Source of the DNA: an uncultured Clostridia bacterium
GTDB taxonomy: Bacteria; Bacillota; Clostridia; Christensenellales; CAG-138
Assembly (NCBI GenBank): GCA_905235205.1
Contig: CAJOKM010000004.1
Location: 1,879-65,878 of the forward strand
Direction: 5' to 3'
Length of the DNA: 64,000 nucleotides
Positions 7,249-55,374 of this stretch are shown one piece after another. The first letter of the stretch is position 1; every line of letters starts with the position of its first letter. Below the pieces are notes generated by a model. That model was given only the letters and a program-made list of their open reading frames with translations. It was not told the DNA's origin and made no database searches. The position numbers and the translations under genes were made by a program.

Positions 7249-7281
7249 CAACCGTTCGATGAAATGTCGGACGGTTGTTTT
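7249..7281 (+). terminator. putative rho-independent terminator after the U32 gene
   Basis: Stem CAACCGT...ACGGTTG followed by TTTT. Confidence 0.4.
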
Positions 7282-7309
7282 CATATGCGGGAAAAACCAT
7301 ACATACAGT
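7281..7309 (+). promoter_or_regulatory. sigma-E-like sporulation promoter upstream of spoIIIAA
   Basis: TCATATG (7281-7287), 14-nt spacer, CATACAGT (7302-7309). This matches the B. subtilis mother-cell sigma-E consensus (TCATATT-N14-CATACAnT), about 20 nt before ATG 7329. Confidence 0.5.
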
Positions 7310-7328
7310 GAGAGCAGGAGGGACGAGC

Positions 7329-8249
7329 ATGGAACCGTGGAAAGCACAGTGGACGGCATTGCTGCCCAAACCCATATCGGAGGTGCTGCATCGCATTGAC
7401 GAAACAGAACCGCTTTTAGAGATCCGTCTGCGGCGCGACGCGCCGATGGAGCTTGTGTTCGAGGACGCGGATCGGATCGTATACGGCAACAACGGCGCGC
7501 CGATGACGACGGCGGAGGATCTTCGGCAGATCTGCGCGCGCCTGACGGAGTTTTCGGCGTTTGCCTGGGAGAATGAGAAGCGGAGCGGATTTGTCACGGT
7601 CGGCGGATGCCGTGTCGGACTGTCCGGACGCATGATCCGCTCGGAAAAGGGTGTTTTAGGGTTTTCATCGGTCTCGGGACTGTGCATTCGTATCGTGCGG
7701 GAGAAAATCGACTGCGCAAAGGATTTGTCGAGCGCGCTGATGCGCGACGGGCGGCTGCTTTCCTCGATCCTGGTCTCACCGCCGGGATGCGGCAAAACGA
7801 CGCTTTTGCGCGATCTGATCCGGATTGCGTCCGACGGATTGTACGGGGTACGCGCAAGCCGCGTCGGCGTCGCGGATGAACGGTTCGAGCTCTCGGGCGG
7901 GTCCGACGGTTCCGTGCCGTTCGATCTGGGCGTACGGACCGACGTCGTTTCGGGGATTGCAAAGGCGGACGCGATGGTGCGGATTCTGTCCACGCTCTCG
8001 CCCGAGATCCTTGCGATGGACGAATTGAACGACCGGCGCGACTGCGACGCGCTGCTGGACGCGCACGGCAGAGGCGTGACGGTGCTTGCGACCGCGCACG
8101 GCAGCGACAGAGAAGACCTCATACGCCGACCGATGCTCCGGATGCTGTTCCGCGAACGCGTGTTCGAGCGGATCGCGGTTTTGCACGGCATCGGAAAACT
8201 GAAAGCCGTGTATGACGAAACCGCCGCGCGAACGGAAGTGCGCAGGTGA
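7329..8249 (+). CDS. spoIIIAA: stage III sporulation protein AA (ATPase)
   Basis: Start MEPWKAQW with AGGAGG upstream. Walker A SPPGCGKTTLLRDL and Walker B ILAMDEL; first gene of the 8-gene spoIIIA order. Confidence 0.9.
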   Translation: MEPWKAQWTALLPKPISEVLHRIDETEPLLEIRLRRDAPMELVFEDADRIVYGNNGAPMTTAEDLRQICARLTEFSAFAWENEKRSGFVTVGGCRVGLSGRMIRSEKGVLGFSSVSGLCIRIVREKIDCAKDLSSALMRDGRLLSSILVSPPGCGKTTLLRDLIRIASDGLYGVRASRVGVADERFELSGGSDGSVPFDLGVRTDVVSGIAKADAMVRILSTLSPEILAMDELNDRRDCDALLDAHGRGVTVLATAHGSDREDLIRRPMLRMLFRERVFERIAVLHGIGKLKAVYDETAARTEVRR

Positions 8250-8725
8250 AGGCGGTCGGGATCGCGCTGCTGTTCGGACTCTGTACGCTGTTCGGATTCC
8301 GGACCGCAGAAAAAAAGACGGTGCGGCTGAAAACCGTACGCGCGATGCTGCTGGAGCTGCAGGCGTTTTCCGATGCGATCATGACGGGCGGCGAAACGCT
8401 TCAACGGCTGTCAGAGCGATCCGGCGTTTTTTATTCGCTTCTTTCGGCGTATCTAAAGGAACTCGAACAAGGGAAGACGGAGACCGAGGCGGCGGAACTT
8501 GCCCTGGAAACCCTCAACGGAACCGGAGACGTGCAGGCGGCGCTCAAGCAGTTTCTGACGGGACTTTCCGGCGCGTCCGGCGCCGCGCTGCGAGGACGGA
8601 TTCACTCGCTGATGCCGGTTTTGCAGGCAGCGGAAACGGCGGCGGAAGCGGAAGCCGGGCAGGGGCGTGTGTTTCGGTGCATCGGCGTGCTGATCGGAGC
8701 GGGGCTGGCGATTCTATTGATGTAG
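8246..8725 (+). CDS. spoIIIAB: stage III sporulation protein AB
   Basis: GTG start overlapping the AA stop (GTGA); N- and C-terminal TM helices; position in the operon. Confidence 0.8.
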   Translation: MKAVGIALLFGLCTLFGFRTAEKKTVRLKTVRAMLLELQAFSDAIMTGGETLQRLSERSGVFYSLLSAYLKELEQGKTETEAAELALETLNGTGDVQAALKQFLTGLSGASGAALRGRIHSLMPVLQAAETAAEAEAGQGRVFRCIGVLIGAGLAILLM

Positions 8726-8734
8726 GGAGCGTTT

Positions 8735-8932
8735 ATGGATATCAATTTGCTGTTCAAGATCGCAGGGATCGGGATTCTCGTCGCGGTGATCGTACAACTG
8801 CTTCGGCAGAACGGACGCGAAGAACTCGCGACGGTTGCGGCGGTTGCCGGACTCGTCCTTGCGACCATGCTCGTGCTGTCCATGATTGTGTCGCTGCTGG
8901 AAACCGTGCGGCGCACGTTCGCCCTGTACTGA
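8735..8932 (+). CDS. spoIIIAC: stage III sporulation protein AC
   Basis: 65-aa two-TM protein MDINLLFKIAGIGILVAVIVQLLRQNGREE, typical of SpoIIIAC. Confidence 0.85.
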   Translation: MDINLLFKIAGIGILVAVIVQLLRQNGREELATVAAVAGLVLATMLVLSMIVSLLETVRRTFALY

Positions 8933-8933
8933 T

Positions 8934-9326
8934 ATGGAACGGCTTCTGCTGATTGCACTGGTCGGATCGGTCACCGCCGTCCTGCTGCGGGCGGTTCGAA
9001 CGGAGTACGCCGTTATCGTCGGGATCGTGACCGCGGTGCTTCTGCTCGTGTTCGGGATCGGATCGTTTACGGGGATCGCAAGCGTGTTCGAGCGTGCCTG
9101 CACGGAGTTTGGCGTATCGTCGGCGCTGCCTGCGTCCGCATTGAAGATTCTCGGACTCGCGTACCTGACCGATCTCGGCGTAAACATCTCGAAGGACGCC
9201 GGACAGCAGGCGATCGCCGGAAACCTTGAACTGGGCGGGCGGATCCTGATCGTATCGTGCGCGCTTCCGTCAATCGTATCGCTGTTGGAAACGGGCGCCG
9301 GGCTGATTCGGGAGACGCTCACATGA
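8934..9326 (+). CDS. spoIIIAD: stage III sporulation protein AD
   Basis: Start MERLLLIALVG inside ORF 8886..9326. Polytopic membrane protein with LKILGLAYLTDLGVNISKDAGQ. Confidence 0.85.
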   Translation: MERLLLIALVGSVTAVLLRAVRTEYAVIVGIVTAVLLLVFGIGSFTGIASVFERACTEFGVSSALPASALKILGLAYLTDLGVNISKDAGQQAIAGNLELGGRILIVSCALPSIVSLLETGAGLIRETLT

Positions 9327-10441
9327 ACCGCGCGGTCTTCTTGCTTACAGTGCTGCTGCTTCCGCTGTGCTTTGCGTCTGTGCCGGAGAAGGCGGGCGAC
9401 GCAGCCGAAGCGCTGGTCGCTTCGGTCGATCTGTCGGAATGGGACGATTGGTTTACACAAAACACGGAAGGAATTGCGTTCAAGCCTTCGGACTTTCTCC
9501 GAAGGACCGTAAACGCGGAACAGGCGAACGATCCGGACGCGTGGAAAAAGGCCGCGCTCGAAGTGGTTTTCCCGTCGCTGAAAACGGCGATACAATACGG
9601 CATGCTGTTTCTGGGGCTTGCGGTGCTTGCGTCGGTCCTGCGGGGGCTGGACACGTCGTCCGCGACGGCGGAAACCGCCGAAATCGCGTTTCGCGCAATC
9701 GCATCAACGGCAGTGCTGCTTGTCGTGTTTACGGAGATTCGGTCCGCGAGTCTTGTATTGAAGCGCGTGACGAATACGTCGGAGGTGCTGCTTCCGATCC
9801 TGCTCGGGTATTTGACGCTCGGCGGTATGGAGCATTCGGCGGCGGCGATCGCACCGCTGTTTTCCCTGCTGTCCGACCTTGTGCTGAACGTCTTTTCCCG
9901 GATCGTCGTTCCGCTTGCCGCGATCGGAGGCGTTCTCTTGGCGCTTGACGTCAGCGGGAACGGAAACCTGCATCCGATCGGGCGAATCCTGATCCGCGGC
10001 GCGAAATGGATCCTTGCGACGGTGTGTTCCGTATTTCTGCTGTTCTCGGTCTTTCGCGGCGCGACGGCGGGAAGCGCGGACGGATTCCTGCTGAAAACGG
10101 CAAAGCTTGCTTTAGGCGGGATCCCGGCGGTCGGCGGGGTCGTCACGGAATCGGTGGAGACGGCGTATCAGTGCCTGATGCTGGTCAAAAACGCGCTCGG
10201 CTTCAGCGCGGCGGCATTGCTTGTGCTGATCGCGGTAAAGCCCGTTCTGTCTGCGGCGCTGATGCGGTTTGCGCTGCGCGGCGCGTCGGCTCTGTGCGAA
10301 CCGATTTCCGGCAGACCGTATGCCGAGCTGCTGCGCGGACTCTCGGATACCATGCAGGTGATCGTTTTGGCGGAGCTTGCGTCGCTTGCTATGGCGCTGT
10401 TTGCGCTTTCGCCGGTGTTCGGCGTGGGGCGGTTTTCATGA
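9323..10441 (+). CDS. spoIIIAE: stage III sporulation protein AE
   Basis: Start MNRAVFLLTVLLL (signal peptide), ATGA overlap with AD; large polytopic membrane protein at the AE position. Confidence 0.85.
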   Translation: MNRAVFLLTVLLLPLCFASVPEKAGDAAEALVASVDLSEWDDWFTQNTEGIAFKPSDFLRRTVNAEQANDPDAWKKAALEVVFPSLKTAIQYGMLFLGLAVLASVLRGLDTSSATAETAEIAFRAIASTAVLLVVFTEIRSASLVLKRVTNTSEVLLPILLGYLTLGGMEHSAAAIAPLFSLLSDLVLNVFSRIVVPLAAIGGVLLALDVSGNGNLHPIGRILIRGAKWILATVCSVFLLFSVFRGATAGSADGFLLKTAKLALGGIPAVGGVVTESVETAYQCLMLVKNALGFSAAALLVLIAVKPVLSAALMRFALRGASALCEPISGRPYAELLRGLSDTMQVIVLAELASLAMALFALSPVFGVGRFS

Positions 10442-10605
10442 ACGCCGCGGCAAGGGCGGTGCTTGCGATCGCCGCGGGCGGCGTGTGCGTGACCGTACTG
10501 GAAACGCTGCTGCCGCGATCCGGAGTGAGAACGGCGGCGAAGGTTGCGATGGGACTGCTGTATCTCCAACTGCTCACGGAACAAATCCTGAGCATAATTC
10601 GGTAG
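10438..10605 (+). CDS. spoIIIAF: SpoIIIAF-like mini-protein (N-terminal membrane segment only)
   Basis: 55 aa, MNAAARAVLAIAAGGVCVTVLETLLPRSGVRTAAKVAMGLLYLQLL. ATGA overlap with AE, and spoIIIAG starts 11 nt after its stop. Only the two-helix N-terminal part of SpoIIIAF is present. Confidence 0.6.
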   Translation: MNAAARAVLAIAAGGVCVTVLETLLPRSGVRTAAKVAMGLLYLQLLTEQILSIIR

Positions 10606-10615
10606 CGGAGGGACT

Positions 10616-11209
10616 ATGATGCAGAAGAAGGACGGAACGAACGTACTGGAACGGATCAAAGCGCGCGTCAAAAAGAACCCCGGGCTCGCTTACGCCGGGT
10701 ATGTCACGATCGGAGTGATCGCCGTCCTTTTTTATCTGCTCGGCAGCCGCTTGGACTGTTCGGGCGCAAAACAGGAATCGACACCGGCAATCGAGACCGG
10801 CGTGCGCGCCGCAGAACGCGACACGCTGGAACGAAGACTGATCGAAGTCCTTTCCAAGATCCGCGGCGCGGGCAGGGTGGATGTGCTTGTCACGTATGAG
10901 ACGAACGGAGAGATCGTCACGGCAACCGTACGGCAGACCGATGAGGACGTAAAGGATGCGAACGGGACGGGCGGAAGCGAGACCTCGCGTACGGTGCGCG
11001 AGGTCACCGAGCCCGCGACGGTCGAGACACAGAACGGGCATACGCCGATCGTGCTGTATGAAAGGGAACCGCTTGTGCGCGGCGTGATCGTGGTGGCGGA
11101 AGGCGCGTCTGACTTTTCGGTGCGGGAGAAGCTGCAGGCGGCGGTGCATGCGGCGACCGGGATTCCGGTTGCGCGGATCGAAGTGTTTGAGATGACTTAC
11201 GGCGGATAA
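10616..11209 (+). CDS. spoIIIAG: stage III sporulation protein AG
   Basis: N-terminal TM, LERRLIEVLSKIRGAGRVDVLVTYE, and C-terminal VRGVIVVAEGASDFSVREKLQAAVHAATGIPVARIEVFEM. Confidence 0.85.
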   Translation: MMQKKDGTNVLERIKARVKKNPGLAYAGYVTIGVIAVLFYLLGSRLDCSGAKQESTPAIETGVRAAERDTLERRLIEVLSKIRGAGRVDVLVTYETNGEIVTATVRQTDEDVKDANGTGGSETSRTVREVTEPATVETQNGHTPIVLYEREPLVRGVIVVAEGASDFSVREKLQAAVHAATGIPVARIEVFEMTYGG

Positions 11210-11235
11210 AAAACAATTCAATGGAGGATCAAGCA

Positions 11236-11769
11236 ATGAAAGAAACGATGAACCGGTACAGGAAATTTCTGAACAAACGCGTTCTGACGGCGGTGGGTCT
11301 GTGCCTGCTGCTGGTTGCGGCGGTACTCACAAACGTGCTGATCAACCGCGGCAGGACGGAGGAGACCGAGGCGCAAGCGTCGAACGACGCGGTACAGGTG
11401 TCTTCGGTCGGGCGCACGTCCGATCCGAACTTCTTTGCGGCGTACCGCGAGGAGCGCGACGGCGTGCGCACGCAGGAGCTTGCGTATCTCGACGCGATCG
11501 TGGCGCAGGGCGCGGATGCGGAAACGCTTGCCGACGCGCAGAAGCAAAAGCTTTCGCTGGTGAACGCCATGGAGACCGAACTGACCGTGGAAAACCTGGT
11601 CCGTTCGAAAGGCTTTGCGGACGTGATCGTATCCATGCACGAGGGAAGCGTGAACGTTGTGGTCGGCGCGGATACGCTTTCGGACGAACAGGTCGCGCAG
11701 ATCCTGGATATCGTCCTCAGGGAGACGGGCGAAAGCGCCGAAAACGTCAAAATCAGCACGACGCTGTAG
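11236..11769 (+). CDS. spoIIIAH: stage III sporulation protein AH
   Basis: ORF 11221..11769; ATG 11236 is preferred (GGAGGA 7 nt upstream). N-terminal TM, FFAAYREERD, and a C-terminal ring-building-like domain. Confidence 0.8.
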   Translation: MKETMNRYRKFLNKRVLTAVGLCLLLVAAVLTNVLINRGRTEETEAQASNDAVQVSSVGRTSDPNFFAAYREERDGVRTQELAYLDAIVAQGADAETLADAQKQKLSLVNAMETELTVENLVRSKGFADVIVSMHEGSVNVVVGADTLSDEQVAQILDIVLRETGESAENVKISTTL

Positions 11770-22430: not shown

Positions 22431-23636
22431 ATGAAACGGTTTTTTCGCGCGATCACGGCGCTGTTTTCCGCAATTCTTCTGGGCTGGTACTGTATTCCCG
22501 AGGTATATCGGACGCTGCATCTTCCCGACCGGGTCGACGCGTCGTTTTCGGTTTCCGCACCCGCGATGCGGACGGAACGGACCGATGTGTACGCCGTATC
22601 GGGATCGCGTGACGAGCGATTGCGCGATGTATCCGGGCAGGCGTATTCGATTCGCCTGTTCGGCGTTCTGCCTCTGCGCACCGTGTATGCCGCGGCGCGG
22701 CAGAGGACGGTATGCGTCGGCGGGGAAGCGTTCGGCGTGATTCTCAGGACGAACGGCGTGCAGATCGTCGGGATCGGGTACGTCGACGCCGAGGAGGGCA
22801 GGATCAGTCCGGCGCAGAAAGCGGGCCTAAAAGAGGGCGACGTGATCTGCGCGGTCGACGGGATGACGGTGACCGACACGCAGTCGTTTATCGGACTGTG
22901 CGAAAAAGCGGGCGAGATCTGTACGCTGTCCTGCCTGCGTGAAGACACGCCGTTTACGGTTACGCTTCGGCCTGCGGCGGACAGCGACGGCGTAAAGCGC
23001 ATCGGCGCATGGGTGCGCGACAGCACGTCGGGGATCGGGACCCTGTCGTTTTATGACGCGTCCAGCCGCCGGTTCACCGCGCTCGGGCACGGTGTGACCG
23101 ATGTGGATACGGGAAAGCTGATCGCGCCGGCAAGTTTTTTGAGTGAAGTACGGCTGACCGGGATCCGAACGGGCGACGCAAACAATGCGGGCGAGCTTTT
23201 GGGGCAGTTTTCCGATCGGGAAGCGGACGCGATCGGCTCGGTCGAGCAGAACACCGTGTTCGGAATCGCGGGGACGCTGAGCGGGTTCACAGACACGAAT
23301 GAGACGGCGATCGGGATCGCGCCTGCCGGCGCGGCGCATTTGGGGGATGCGTTCATCCGCTCGACGATCGACGCCGGCGGCGTGCGTGAATACCGGGTTC
23401 GCGTGATCCGCGTCGATGTGCAGTCGTCGCCCGAGACGCAGGGGATGATGATTGAAATTACGGACGACGCATTGCTCGAAAAAACGAACGGCATCGTACA
23501 GGGCATGAGCGGCAGTCCGCTGATCCAGGACGGGAAACTGATCGGCGTCGTGACGCATGTGTTCGTCAGCCGGCCGACGCGCGGATACTGTCTGTACGCG
23601 GACTGGATGGCGCAAAAACTGCTGCCTTCGACATAA
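22431..23636 (+). CDS. spoIVB: SpoIVB peptidase (S55)
   Basis: Start MKRFFRAIT (AAGGAG upstream) inside ORF 22383..23636. PDZ segment GLKEGDVICAVDG, LGHGVTD, and catalytic GMSGSPLIQDGKLIGVVTHV. Confidence 0.9.
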   Translation: MKRFFRAITALFSAILLGWYCIPEVYRTLHLPDRVDASFSVSAPAMRTERTDVYAVSGSRDERLRDVSGQAYSIRLFGVLPLRTVYAAARQRTVCVGGEAFGVILRTNGVQIVGIGYVDAEEGRISPAQKAGLKEGDVICAVDGMTVTDTQSFIGLCEKAGEICTLSCLREDTPFTVTLRPAADSDGVKRIGAWVRDSTSGIGTLSFYDASSRRFTALGHGVTDVDTGKLIAPASFLSEVRLTGIRTGDANNAGELLGQFSDREADAIGSVEQNTVFGIAGTLSGFTDTNETAIGIAPAGAAHLGDAFIRSTIDAGGVREYRVRVIRVDVQSSPETQGMMIEITDDALLEKTNGIVQGMSGSPLIQDGKLIGVVTHVFVSRPTRGYCLYADWMAQKLLPST

Positions 23637-23676
23637 TTTATTCACGGTATTCCCGCGTTTCGTCATTTCTTCACGG

Positions 23677-23730: not shown

Positions 23731-24450
23731 ATGCGTATTCTGATGCAAACGACCGACGAAGCGACGGAACGGTCGTATTTATCCGCGGCGGACGAGCTAA
23801 ACGGACTGGATCTTTGCGTGCTGCACGACGAAGCGCAAGCCCTGGAGCGCGCGTTTCGTGAGCCGTTCGACGCACTGATCGTCGATGAAGAAAGCGAGGC
23901 AAGCGACACGCCCGGCACTGACCGCGTCTTTTATCCGGACAATCGGATTCTGCTGTTCGATACAGCGCCCCACGCAATCCCGAGCGAGATCACCTACGCC
24001 TTTTACCGCTCGACGCCGCCGAAAACGGTGCTCGGGCGGATCGGTACGTTTCCGGCGGGAGGCGTACACAGAACCGGAACGGACGCCGCGATCTCACGCT
24101 TTTTACAGCGGGTGGGGGTTCCGGTGCATCTGAACGGATTCTATCTTCTGAAGGATTCGATCCGGCTGATTCTGACCTGCAAACGCCCGACGGACTTGCG
24201 CATCACGCGCGATCTGTATGCGGCGCTGTCCGAAACGCTGCGGATTCCTTCGTCCGGCATCGAGCATGCGATCCGCCATGCGATCGGCGCGGCGTGGCTT
24301 CGGGCGGATGTGGAGCTGCTCGAATCGGTTTTCGGGTACACGGTCAGTTCGGAACGCGCCATGCCGTCCAACGCGGCGTTTCTGTTTACGGCGGCGGAGC
24401 GGATTCGCCTGGAGAGCGGGGAGGAGCAGCGATGGAATACCATGAATTGA
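23731..24450 (+). CDS. spo0A: sporulation transcription factor Spo0A with atypical, shortened receiver domain
   Basis: Start MRILMQTTDE (GGAGAGGGGG upstream) inside ORF 23557..24450. The C-terminal domain matches the Spo0A DNA-binding domain: GVPVHLNGFYLLKDSI..., IEHAIRHAIGAAW, VFGYTVSSERAMPSNAAFLF. Canonical position after spoIVB. Confidence 0.8.
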   Translation: MRILMQTTDEATERSYLSAADELNGLDLCVLHDEAQALERAFREPFDALIVDEESEASDTPGTDRVFYPDNRILLFDTAPHAIPSEITYAFYRSTPPKTVLGRIGTFPAGGVHRTGTDAAISRFLQRVGVPVHLNGFYLLKDSIRLILTCKRPTDLRITRDLYAALSETLRIPSSGIEHAIRHAIGAAWLRADVELLESVFGYTVSSERAMPSNAAFLFTAAERIRLESGEEQRWNTMN

Positions 24451-24908
24451 TCGCACTGTCGGATCGGTTTCACAGCCGGTACCGGGATCCGGACGCGCTT
24501 TTGGACGCGGTGATCAACGCGACGCTTTGCGCGCTGTGCGTTCCGGCAAACCTTTTAGGCTACCGGTATCTGTTCCTTGCGGTTCGCTATATCCGCAAAA
24601 CGCCGCAGGAAAAGCGACTCAACATGCTGCGCGACATCTATCCGCACGTAGCGGAGATGACCGGAACGAATCCGCCCATGGCGGAGCGCGCGATGCGTTA
24701 TGCGATCTCGTGTGCATGGAAACGCGCCGATCCCGAGGTGCTGTATTCATATCTCGGACTGCGCGGACGTGATCTCAAGAACGCGCCGACCAACGTAGAG
24801 TTTCTGTATCTTGTCGCGGAGCGCGTGCGTCTGATCACCGGCGATCCGGAGGACGAAGCGCGGTTTCAAAGACTGATGGAAGAAGCGCACAAGCGTTTCG
24901 GATCGTAA
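24432..24908 (+). CDS. stand-alone Spo0A C-terminal (DNA-binding) domain protein, no receiver domain
   Basis: Start MEYHELIAL (GGGGAGGAG 5 nt upstream) inside ORF 24294..24908. VPANLLGYRYLFLAVRYI, AERAMRYAISCAWKRADPEVLYSYLG and APTNVEFLYLVAERVRL parallel the Spo0A_C blocks. Overlaps spo0A by 19 nt. Confidence 0.75.
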   Translation: MEYHELIALSDRFHSRYRDPDALLDAVINATLCALCVPANLLGYRYLFLAVRYIRKTPQEKRLNMLRDIYPHVAEMTGTNPPMAERAMRYAISCAWKRADPEVLYSYLGLRGRDLKNAPTNVEFLYLVAERVRLITGDPEDEARFQRLMEEAHKRFGS

Positions 24909-24912
24909 ACAA

Positions 24913-24942
24913 TTGACGAACGACGTCGCTCTGTGCTAAAAT
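24913..24942 (+). promoter_or_regulatory. sigma-A type promoter (extended -10) for deoB-punA
   Basis: TTGACG (24913-24918), 18-nt spacer, TGcTAAAAT (24934-24942). Confidence 0.55.
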
Positions 24943-27183: not shown

Positions 27184-27274
27184 TGGCGCAGAGAGAGGGA
27201 TTCGAACCCTCGATACGGTTCCCCGTATACACGATTTCCAGTCGTGCGCCTTAGACCAGCTCAGCCATCTCTGC
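27184..27274 (-). tRNA. tRNA-Ser (anticodon GGA)
   Basis: Manual fold: acceptor GCAGAGA/TCTCTGC, anticodon stem CACGA/TCGTG, loop CTGGAAA, long variable arm, T-arm GAGGG-TTCGAAT-CCCTC, encoded CCA. Confidence 0.9.
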
Positions 27275-27300
27275 ACGGTGGTTTTTGCTGCACCTTTGCT

Positions 27301-27329
27301 ATCTTACAACAATCGTTCCCAAAAAGCAA
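27301..27329 (-). promoter_or_regulatory. sigma-A type promoter for tRNA-Ser(GGA)
   Basis: Minus-strand TTGCTT (27329-27324), 17-nt spacer, TAAGAT (27306-27301). Confidence 0.4.
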
Positions 27330-27389
27330 GTGATTTTTTCGACTTGCCGAGGCATCAGCACAGAAAAAACAAAAATGTTGAAAAAAGTG

Positions 27390-27417
27390 CTTGCTTTTTT
27401 TCTGAAACCGTGTATAA
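27390..27417 (+). promoter_or_regulatory. sigma-A type promoter for tRNA-Ala
   Basis: TTGCTT (27390-27395), 16-nt spacer, TATAAT (27412-27417), 14 nt before the tRNA 5' end. Confidence 0.5.
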
Positions 27418-27431
27418 TGATTTCTGTTCGC

Positions 27432-27506
27432 GGGGCATTAGCACAGTTGGTAGCGCGCAACGTTCGCAATGTTGAGGTCAGGAGTTCGAATCTCCTATGC
27501 TCCACC
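27432..27506 (+). tRNA. tRNA-Ala (anticodon CGC)
   Basis: Acceptor GGGGCAT/ATGCTCC with the G3:U70 alanine identity pair, anticodon loop TTCGCAA, T-loop GGTTCGAATCC-like AGGAGTTCGAATCTCCT, encoded CCA. Confidence 0.9.
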
Positions 27507-50192: not shown

Positions 50193-50285
50193 TGGCGCGG
50201 AAAGTGGGATTTGAACCCACGCACCGGTCATCCCAGTCTACTCCCTTAGCAGGGGAGCCCCTTATAGCCACTTGGGTATTTCCGC
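50193..50285 (-). tRNA. tRNA-Ser (anticodon GCT)
   Basis: Acceptor GCGGAAA/TTTCCGC, anticodon stem CTCCC/GGGAG, loop CTGCTAA, long variable arm, T-arm GTGGG-TTCAAAT-CCCAC, encoded CCA. Confidence 0.9.
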
Positions 50286-50302
50286 GTGCTTTTCGAGAAA
50301 AT

Positions 50303-50389
50303 GGCGGAGATGGTAGGATTTGAACCCACGGATGCTCTCACATCAACGGTTTTCAAGACCGCCTCCTTAAGCCACTCGGACACATCTCC
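50303..50389 (-). tRNA. tRNA-Ser (anticodon TGA)
   Basis: Acceptor GGAGATG/CATCTCC, anticodon loop CTTGAAA, long variable arm, T-loop TTCAAAT, encoded CCA. Confidence 0.9.
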
Positions 50390-54804: not shown

Positions 54805-54881
54805 GCGTCTGTAGCTCAGCAGGATAGAGCAACGGCCTTCTAAGCCGTAGGTCCCGGGTTCGAATCCCTGCAGGCGCGCCA
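54805..54881 (+). tRNA. tRNA-Arg (anticodon TCT)
   Basis: Anticodon stem ACGGC/GCCGT, loop CTTCTAA, T-loop GGTTCGAATCC, encoded CCA. Confidence 0.9.
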
Positions 54882-54935
54882 ACGGCGCATCCCCGAGGGA
54901 AGCCCCGGGGATGCGCATCCTCACAAACGGCACGT

Positions 54936-55013
54936 GGTGGATATAGTTCAGTTGGTTAGAATGCCAGATTGTGGCTCTGGAGGTCGTGGGTTCGAGTCCC
55001 ACTATCCACCCCA
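54936..55013 (+). tRNA. tRNA-His (anticodon GTG) with encoded G-1
   Basis: An extra 5' G pairs with C73. Acceptor GTGGATA/TATCCAC, anticodon loop TTGTGGC, encoded CCA. Confidence 0.9.
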
Positions 55014-55051
55014 TTGTCCGGGGCCGGTCAATGCCGGCTCCGGCGCATCGC

Positions 55052-55126
55052 TGGGGTGTAGCCAAGCGGTAAGGCAACGGACTTTGACTCCGTCATTCGT
55101 GCGTTCAAATCGCGCCACCCCAGCCA
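55052..55126 (+). tRNA. tRNA-Gln (anticodon TTG)
   Basis: Acceptor TGGGGTG/CACCCCA, anticodon stem ACGGA/TCCGT, loop CTTTGAC, encoded CCA. Confidence 0.9.
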
Positions 55127-55129
55127 TAT

Positions 55130-55205
55130 GACCCGTTAGCTCAGTCGGTAGAGCACTTGACTTTTAATCAAGGTGTCCGGGGTTCGAATCCCCGACGGGT
55201 CACCA
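55130..55205 (+). tRNA. tRNA-Lys (anticodon TTT)
   Basis: Acceptor GACCCGT/ACGGGTC, anticodon stem CTTGA/TCAAG, loop CTTTTAA, encoded CCA. Confidence 0.9.
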
Positions 55206-55213
55206 CATTCCGG

Positions 55214-55297
55214 GCGGACGTGGCGGAATTGGCAGACGCGCCGGATTTAGGTTCCGGTGCCATAGGCGTATGAGTTCAAGTCTCTTCGTCCGCACCA
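55214..55297 (+). tRNA. tRNA-Leu (anticodon TAG)
   Basis: Acceptor GCGGACG/CGTCCGC, anticodon stem CCGGA/TCCGG, loop TTTAGGT, long variable arm, encoded CCA. Confidence 0.9.
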
Positions 55298-55300
55298 TAT

Positions 55301-55374
55301 GCAGGTATAGTGTAGCGGTAACACATTAGCCTTCCAAGCTGAGATCACGGGTTCGAGTCCCGTTACCTGCTCCA
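55301..55374 (+). tRNA. tRNA-Gly (anticodon TCC)
   Basis: Acceptor GCAGGTA/TACCTGC, anticodon loop CTTCCAA, T-loop GGTTCGAGTCC, encoded CCA. Confidence 0.9.

Follow-up and report, generated by a model that had tools for sequence, protein, structure and literature searches.

A 158-amino-acid (aa) open reading frame (ORF) at the spo0A locus of an uncultured Clostridia bacterium is a genuine gene under strong purifying selection, and its product is a Spo0A effector-domain protein that lacks a receiver. The gene, referred to here as class B, was analyzed within a 64,000-nucleotide (nt) stretch of contig CAJOKM010000004.1 (the window), where it overlaps the 3′ end of an upstream gene, class A. Class A is the syntenic orthologue of spo0A, but it encodes a degenerate receiver and is not a canonical spo0A. 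The explanation that we favor, with a confidence that we would call evenly balanced, is that class B acts as an obligate partner, one subunit of a remodeled, probably phosphorylation-independent Spo0A with two effector domains.

The first-pass annotation of the window, made from the DNA letters and a list of ORFs, had described a 158-aa ORF that is preceded by the ribosome binding site GGGGAGGAG and starts 19 nt before the stop codon of the upstream gene, and had read its product as a Spo0A C-terminal domain. ORF inspection returned the same start and stop (Table 1), and the Pfam search gave a match to Spo0A_C (PF08769) with an E value of 4.1e-22 and 78.6 bits (cutoff, 25), which covers residues 28 to 131 and model positions 1 to 103 of 104 and is the sole Pfam domain found. 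Against the canonical Spo0A equivalog TIGR02875, class B scored 68.2 bits (cutoff, 200), and only the C-terminal part of the model was matched. The only solved relatives found by sequence were the Spo0A effector domains 1FC3 and 1LQ1 (E, ~2e-13). An AlphaFold2 model computed with 17 family members as input (predicted local distance difference test score [pLDDT], 86; predicted template modeling score [pTM], 0.80) is all-helical with a helix-turn-helix, as are 1FC3 and 1LQ1; these were the top Foldseek matches, on which the class B core superposes with target-normalized template modeling (TM) scores of 0.82 to 0.88 and a root mean square deviation of 1.8 to 2.1 Å. The N-terminal extension and helical tail of the first-pass annotation both appear in the model as additional helices. 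The former is found in all family members and is not part of canonical Spo0A_C, while the latter comes after an invariant ...AERVRLIxGDP... motif and is predicted with a pLDDT of just 67 to 69.

Among 5.8 billion proteins, 52 homologues of class B were recovered, with identities down to ~45%. Almost all of them are 155 to 169 aa long, with alignments that begin at Met1, and the residues invariant in the family include LLGYRY, M83, R86, Y90, YLGLRG, and the AERVRLIxGDP motif. The ratio of nonsynonymous to synonymous substitution rates (dN/dS), computed against two close relatives (dS, 0.46 to 0.76), was 0.10 to 0.12 for class B, compared with 0.19 to 0.32 for class A and 0.11 to 0.20 for spoIVB. 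Because 52 homologues share a constant length and dN/dS is this low, class B is not a chance ORF. Ratios against distant loci, which ranged from 0.09 to 0.67 and resemble upper bounds only, were not relied on because synonymous sites are saturated at such distances (dS > 1); the closer relatives were used instead. An upstream GTG at position 24294, which would give a 204-aa product, was ruled out as the start, since the 155- to 169-aa homologues align from Met1 and a Shine-Dalgarno sequence precedes the ATG at 24432.

The family occurs in uncultured Clostridia sampled from the rumen and from animal or human guts. They are represented, for example, by RUG432, a 2.0-Mb metagenome-assembled genome (MAG) of 91% completeness whose nearest reference is Clostridium sp. 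CAG:1024. The NCBI annotation of family members reads only "Spo0A C-terminal domain-containing protein." A scan of genome contigs with exact class B peptide patterns returned one locus (L001, from RUG432) and is unfit as a phylogenetic profile.

The identification of the neighbor as spo0A in the first-pass annotation holds for the locus and not for the protein. Class A lies directly after spoIVB (Peptidase_S55; E, 7.6e-67), the position of spo0A in other Firmicutes, and it is found 3′ of spoIVB in the window and in every related locus examined. No match to Response_reg (PF00072) was obtained for class A even at an E value of ≤1, nor for any member of its family, and TIGR02875 returned 84.7 bits against the cutoff of 200, with the match limited to the C-terminal part of the model. 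The members of the class A family (P0053 to P0077) are at least 42% identical, are 227 to 242 aa long apart from the 281-aa outlier P0073, and contain only PF08769. Past the family, there is a sharp drop in score (169, 86, then 79 bits), after which canonical proteins with a receiver and Spo0A_C begin.

The N-terminal 114 residues of class A derive from a receiver whose fold is still receiver-like and whose phospho-chemistry is mostly lost. Aligned to a profile of 101 canonical Spo0A receivers, this region gave an hhalign probability of 95% (E, 2.8e-8; 113 columns). The AlphaFold2 model of class A (pLDDT, 78; pTM, 0.57) has the topology β1-α1-β2-α2-β3-loop-β4-β5-α5, in which the loop is of low confidence and α3 and α4 are missing, and Foldseek matched it both to the full-length response regulators FixJ, RcsB, and PorX and to the isolated receiver domains of PhoB and FrzS (target-normalized TM, 0.6 to 0.7). 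Residues are numbered by what we take to be the sequence of Bacillus subtilis Spo0A, which reproduces D56, T86, K108, and a length of 267 aa and fits the 1LQ1 chain alignments. In the hhalign register, class A has a nearly invariant Thr at the equivalent of D10, a variable residue at D11, a hydrophobic residue at T86, and R, K, S, Q, T, H, D, P, C, or I at K108. The equivalent of D56 (D52 in the window) stays acidic, being Asp in 18 and Glu in 3 of 21 sequences. The effector domain of class A was matched by Spo0A_C with an E value of 3.1e-21 and 75.8 bits and by PDB entry 1LQ1 with an E value of 1.5e-20.

The association between the two genes was followed through 12 lineages, 11 of them with split genes (the window, L001, L002, L005, L008, L014, and L016 to L020) and one represented by the fused form (L011 to L013). 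Class A followed by class B lies between spoIVB and deoB in 12/12 lineages, and the order recN-spoIVB-A-B-deoB-PNP is likewise kept in all 12, as part of a conserved housekeeping synteny (dxs-tlyA-nadK-argR-recN-spoIVB-A-B-deoB-PNP). Together with the 52 homologues and the low dN/dS, this bears out the conservation of the ORF beside the spo0A-locus gene. The overlaps between A and B in the 11 split lineages measure 4, 4, 4, 4, 11, 11, 11, 19, 19, 23, and 59 nt, and a Shine-Dalgarno sequence of the GGAGG or GGGGGA type lies ~4 to 11 nt before the start of B, within the end of A, in each of the 11. No credible terminator was found between A and B, and two terminator-like matches inside class A are at the level of chance (3 found, 1.7 expected). 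The conserved Shine-Dalgarno sequence and overlap argue for translational coupling of class B with class A, and the view of the first-pass annotation that this overlapping, receiver-less paralogue is cotranscribed with its neighbor is supported. In L008 (5292-6059), the class A frame extends 59 nt into class B with an unrelated tail (...GNARSGGRASGCLYR), for which loss of the stop codon or a misassembly may be responsible.

In the window, the two Spo0A_C domains are encoded by separate overlapping genes rather than as one polypeptide. In-frame A-B fusions, with two Spo0A_C matches per protein, occur in three subclades, each of which also has unfused relatives: P0062, P0065, and P0214 (393 aa), P0059 (397 aa), and P0215 (385 aa). 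P0062 was found in identical form on 15 contigs, 10 of which are 50 to 200 kb long, including one from NCBI MAG GCA_017430105.1. Because 15 contigs agree and the diverged P0065 and P0214 are fused as well, this fusion is not an assembly slip. The fused gene in L011 retains an internal Shine-Dalgarno sequence and ATG.

The effector domains of A and B, which are 34% identical, were compared in an alignment of 101 canonical, 28 class A, and 55 class B domains. E213 is kept in 100% of class A and 53% of class B domains, and R214 is His in 100% of class A and Arg in 100% of class B. R217 is kept in 100% of class A domains and is His in 64% of class B, with Arg in the window; H218 is kept in 93% of class A and is Tyr in 100% of class B. 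The F236-G-Y-T-V240 segment is kept in class A, including that of the window, and reads L-G-L-R-G in class B. The resulting signatures are EHA(I/M)RHAI..AW and FGYTV for class A and (E/x)R(A/T)M(R/H)YAI..AW and YLGLRG for class B, so that the canonical signature, ERAIRHAI..AW ... FGYTV, is carried in full by neither and in part by each. R214 is a residue of the recognition helix, through which the 0A box is read in 1LQ1, and F236 and V240 belong to the sigma-A-activating region known from work on B. subtilis. The mean net charge of the helix-turn-helix is +8.0 in class B, +2.6 in canonical Spo0A, and +0.5 in class A. By these patterns, the two effector domains are complementary and not redundant. 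The first-pass annotation had correctly noted that the recognition helices differ (RAMRYAISCAW in class B versus HAIRHAIGAAW in class A); its hint at a different DNA specificity pointed the wrong way, as the canonical Arg at R214 is found in class B and the His in class A.

In a neighbor-joining (NJ) tree, class A and the first domain of the fusions were monophyletic (86% bootstrap), whereas class B joined a set of "B-like" proteins (P0219, P0220, P0225, P0227, P0229, and P0248) at 96%, and A was sister to B in 0/100 bootstraps. The B-like proteins bear other degenerate N-terminal domains. A group of A, P0078, B, and the B-like proteins was separated from canonical and multirepeat domains at 92%, a split to which long-branch attraction may contribute. 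Mean corrected distances were 1.77 between A and B, 1.40 between A and canonical domains, and 1.56 between B and canonical domains. A recent tandem duplication of the class A effector domain was rejected as the origin of class B because of the 34% identity, the A-B distance of 1.77, and the absence of sister pairing. Class B instead appears to belong to an older, divergent Spo0A_C lineage, with the reservation that this placement comes from NJ and is open to long-branch effects. In three of the B-like proteins, P0225, P0227, and P0229 (218 to 254 aa), an effector domain placed with class B in the tree is joined to another type of degenerate N-terminal domain, which suggests that the ancestor of class B was a full-length paralogue.

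Canonical Spo0A is inactive until its receiver is phosphorylated, which leads to dimerization, release of the effector domain, and placement of two such domains on tandem 0A boxes. In the arrangement that we favor, the class A receiver has decayed to a pseudo-receiver that is most likely incapable of phospho-dependent dimerization, and the second effector domain would be supplied genetically, by coupled translation from the same mRNA or, in some relatives, by in-frame fusion. The active regulator would be an A-B heteromer with two different Spo0A_C domains at a fixed stoichiometry, and A plus B would recreate the two-domain valency with which the canonical Spo0A~P dimer occupies tandem 0A boxes. 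Class B would serve as the DNA anchor, given its strong basicity and the Arg retained at its R214 position, and class A would serve as the activation and regulation subunit, contacting polymerase, because it keeps the FGYTV sigma-A contact motif and the pseudo-receiver. The activity of such a regulator would be set by its expression or by whatever binds the pseudo-receiver. Physical association of A with B, DNA binding by class B, and independence from phosphorylation are each what we infer from the sequences; isolated Spo0A effector domains do bind genuine targets without phosphorylation (PMC3485338). Heterodimerization with the neighbor, one of the options raised by the first-pass annotation, is thus the one favored by the fusions, the coupling, and the co-occurrence, with the contact itself a prediction.

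The pair shares with canonical Spo0A the effector-domain family and fold, the locus after spoIVB, and 0A-like boxes upstream. It differs in that class B has no receiver, the pseudo-receiver of class A lacks the conserved D10, D11, T86, and K108 as well as α3 and α4, and the two effector domains are distinct proteins, each with a partial signature.

Several points weigh against the obligate-partner explanation. Class B departs from canonical Spo0A at several invariant positions (K171L, R177F, R211M, and K246P), and with these losses of basic and polar side chains its mode of DNA binding may differ, or 0A boxes may not be its targets. The functional roles assigned to R214 and FGYTV are carried over from B. 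subtilis genetics and the 1LQ1 structure. Since every class A protein has Asp or Glu at the equivalent of D56, a measure of phospho-control, or phosphomimicry, is possible. The A-B contact is one that we infer, and the class A model is of moderate confidence (pTM, 0.57). Finally, the same genomes may also hold a canonical spo0A elsewhere.

This last point leads to the alternative in which the A-B pair acts as a modulator of, or a supplement to, a canonical, phosphorylatable spo0A encoded at another locus, an arrangement that would be compatible with an A-B complex and that we regard as a tentative possibility, well short of an even chance. Two spo0A paralogues have been recorded in about 10 Clostridiales genomes (bioRxiv 10.1101/2022.02.25.481979) and metagenomes hold many noncanonical Spo0A_C architectures, but the pair sits at the ancestral spoIVB-spo0A position in every lineage, and the genomes are small (2.0 Mb for RUG432, at 91% completeness). 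The opposite extreme, that the sole Spo0A of this small-genome clade is a phosphorylation-independent regulator of two subunits or of one fused chain, is a proposal that we hold just as tentatively.

It seems unlikely to us that class B is an independent transcription factor with its own motif and regulon, which shares the operon for reasons of timing and forms no complex with class A. Effector domains that are just 34% identical, the tree (A sister to B in 0/100 bootstraps; B with the B-like proteins in 96/100), and recognition helices that differ at R214, R217, and H218 would all suit such a factor. The fusions and the strict A-B pairing would not, and it is not obvious what the family-specific terminal helices of class B would do in a helix-turn-helix protein that acts alone.

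Less probable again is the function that the first-pass annotation had put forward, in which class B alone binds 0A boxes constitutively and preoccupies or competes for them, damping or timing the action of class A. Such an antagonist could draw on the ability of isolated Spo0A effector domains to bind DNA without phosphorylation (PMC3485338), on the very basic character of class B with its retained R214, and on the lack of FGYTV, owing to which class B bound alone may not activate; receiver-less spo0A copies in phages have also been proposed to interfere with host sporulation (PMC10294663). The recurrent in-frame fusions, however, make little sense for an antagonist, because A and B are then locked 1:1 in one molecule, and translational coupling and co-occurrence in 12/12 lineages point to a fixed stoichiometry. 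The premise of competition with a phospho-regulated Spo0A is also wrong because class A, the presumed target, is not canonical. Competition thus fits these data worse than an obligate partner does. That the ORF is a functionless, decaying duplicate of part of spo0A, as the missing receiver and the overlap with its neighbor might suggest, can be dismissed for practical purposes and is refuted by a dN/dS of ~0.1 that lies below the class A value, a constant length down to 45% identity, a conserved Shine-Dalgarno sequence, and a confidently predicted fold.

Truncated spo0A genes that encode the effector domain only have been described on phages from human-gut viromes (Schwartz et al., mBio 2023, PMC10294663). 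They resemble class B as small, stand-alone, receiver-less Spo0A effector domains, which are expected to act without the phosphorelay because they have no receiver. Class B differs in being chromosomal, in housekeeping synteny, and always coupled to class A. No class B relatives were found in IMG/VR, GenBank phage records were ~29 to 37% identical to class B, at the level of generic Spo0A_C similarity, and PHROG matches were weak (48 and 35 bits). Receiver-free DNA binding is also a property of the constitutive C-terminal fragments and receiver deletions of B. subtilis Spo0A and of the Clostridioides difficile DNA-binding domain (PMC3485338). Those were made in the laboratory from a canonical domain, whereas class B is a divergent family found in nature, which carries extra helices at its termini and is altered in the activation region.

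The nearest conceptual analogue of the A-B pair is BldM-WhiI, an atypical, phosphorylation-independent response-regulator heterodimer in Streptomyces development (PMC4125116), which, like A-B, involves a developmental master regulator. BldM-WhiI, HP1043, and ChxR are described as sharing a degenerate receiver and an activity that is governed by partner choice or expression level rather than by phosphorylation. They differ in having effector domains of the NarL or OmpR type and, as partners, two full-length response regulators; neither gene fusion nor coupling is reported for any of them.

Metagenomic proteins with 2 to 5 tandem Spo0A_C domains and no receiver were also encountered (P0216, P0217, P0218, P0221, P0222, P0226, P0228, and P0230), examples being a protein of 439 aa with 4 domains and one of 849 aa with 5; no literature on tandem Spo0A_C proteins was found. 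Four of these (P0216, P0217, P0218, and P0230) resemble fused A-B in holding several effector domains without a functional receiver, but their repeats group with canonical domains and not with A or B (92% bootstrap). P0224 combines a receiver-like N terminus with two Spo0A_C domains. At L015 (1179-2713), two adjacent genes for proteins of 281 and 230 aa, each with a degenerate receiver-like N terminus and Spo0A_C, overlap by 4 nt; they belong to a different lineage and are not beside spoIVB. P0127 (239 aa) shows the unexpected combination of an annotated resolvase domain (PF00239) with Spo0A_C. P0171, which is present on 14 contigs of up to 210 kb, and P0106 are 152 to 154 aa long and start with "MLKPFD," corresponding to the end of a receiver (β5/α5), followed by a canonical-looking Spo0A_C; they could represent spo0A genes that have been split or truncated at the N terminus.

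Upstream of class A are two 0A-type boxes (TTCGACA and TTCGTCA) in the same orientation and 32 bp apart. Both positions are also occupied in the close relatives L016 and L017; the second box reads TTCGACA in L016, and TTCGTCA is found at a similar position in L002. The boxes hint at autoregulation, as in other spo0A genes, and are suggestive only, because TGTCGAA is not enriched in the window (11 found versus 14.3 expected). Directly 3′ of the class B stop, a putative promoter of deoB matches the consensus at 10 of 12 hexamer positions with an extended −10 element, a consensus match only, and would mark the 3′ boundary of the two-gene unit. Its presence suggests that transcription of deoB-PNP need not depend on the Spo0A-like operon. 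Further upstream, ahead of a nusB/xseA/ispA/dxs block, a spoIIIA operon (AA, AB, AE, and AH by Pfam) occupies 7275-11769; the lineage therefore retains core sporulation machinery despite its unusual Spo0A. Unrelated to A-B, the window also contains tRNA genes, with six clustered at 54805-55371 and pairs at 27187-27504 and 50196-50389.

Table 1. Positions in the window of the A-B genes, their domains, and adjacent signals
Feature	Position	Strand	Details
0A-box core TGTCGAA, perfect	23627..23633	-	Overlaps the end of spoIVB, 104 nt before the class A ATG
0A-like box TTCGTCA	23659..23665		One mismatch; 72 nt before the class A ATG
Class A gene, syntenic spo0A orthologue	23731..24450	+	239 aa; pseudo-receiver plus Spo0A_C
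Degenerate receiver-like domain of class A	23734..24072	+	Residues 2-114; by hhalign, AlphaFold2, and Foldseek
Spo0A_C effector domain of class A	24091..24405	+	Residues 121-225
Shine-Dalgarno sequence of class B	24418..24426	+	GGGGAGGAG; within class A, at its 3′ end; 5-nt spacing to the ATG
Class A/class B overlap	24432..24450	+	19 nt; class A TGA at 24448-24450
Class B gene, receiver-less Spo0A effector-domain protein	24432..24908	+	158 aa; ATG at 24432, stop ends at 24908
Additional N-terminal helix of class B	24438..24479	+	Residues 3-16; AlphaFold2 secondary structure
Spo0A_C core of class B	24513..24824	+	Residues 28-131; very basic, R214 kept
C-terminal tail helix of class B	24846..24899	+	Residues 139-156; AlphaFold2; family-specific
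Sigma-70-like promoter, putative	24913..24942	+	TTGACG, 18-nt spacer, TG, TAAAAT; before deoB

No description of a pseudo-receiver Spo0A that is paired or fused with a second effector domain was found in the literature, where the truncated spo0A copies of phages and the record of two spo0A paralogues in some Clostridiales were all that bore on it. To our knowledge, phosphorylation of Spo0A is regarded as the universal trigger of endospore formation, and a Spo0A with a receiver serves as a marker of sporulation potential in surveys of genomes and MAGs. Equivalog-based annotation misses or misscores the A-B system. How much it will interest specialists in sporulation and two-component signaling hinges on the status of a canonical spo0A in these genomes and on the A-B complex. 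The pair connects to a wider, undescribed diversity of receiver-less and multicopy Spo0A_C proteins, and it offers a testable division of labor, between DNA anchoring and contact with RNA polymerase, within one transcription factor family. It may also be a natural experiment in which a response regulator escapes phospho-control through a hardwired "dimer," its second effector domain provided in trans or in cis. The customary phosphorylation step may not be needed to turn on sporulation in this clade; if so, entry into sporulation would proceed without His-Asp phosphotransfer, for example through transcription of the operon or through a ligand or partner of the pseudo-receiver, and the clade would depart from the rule by which sporulation in endospore formers begins with phosphorylation of Spo0A.

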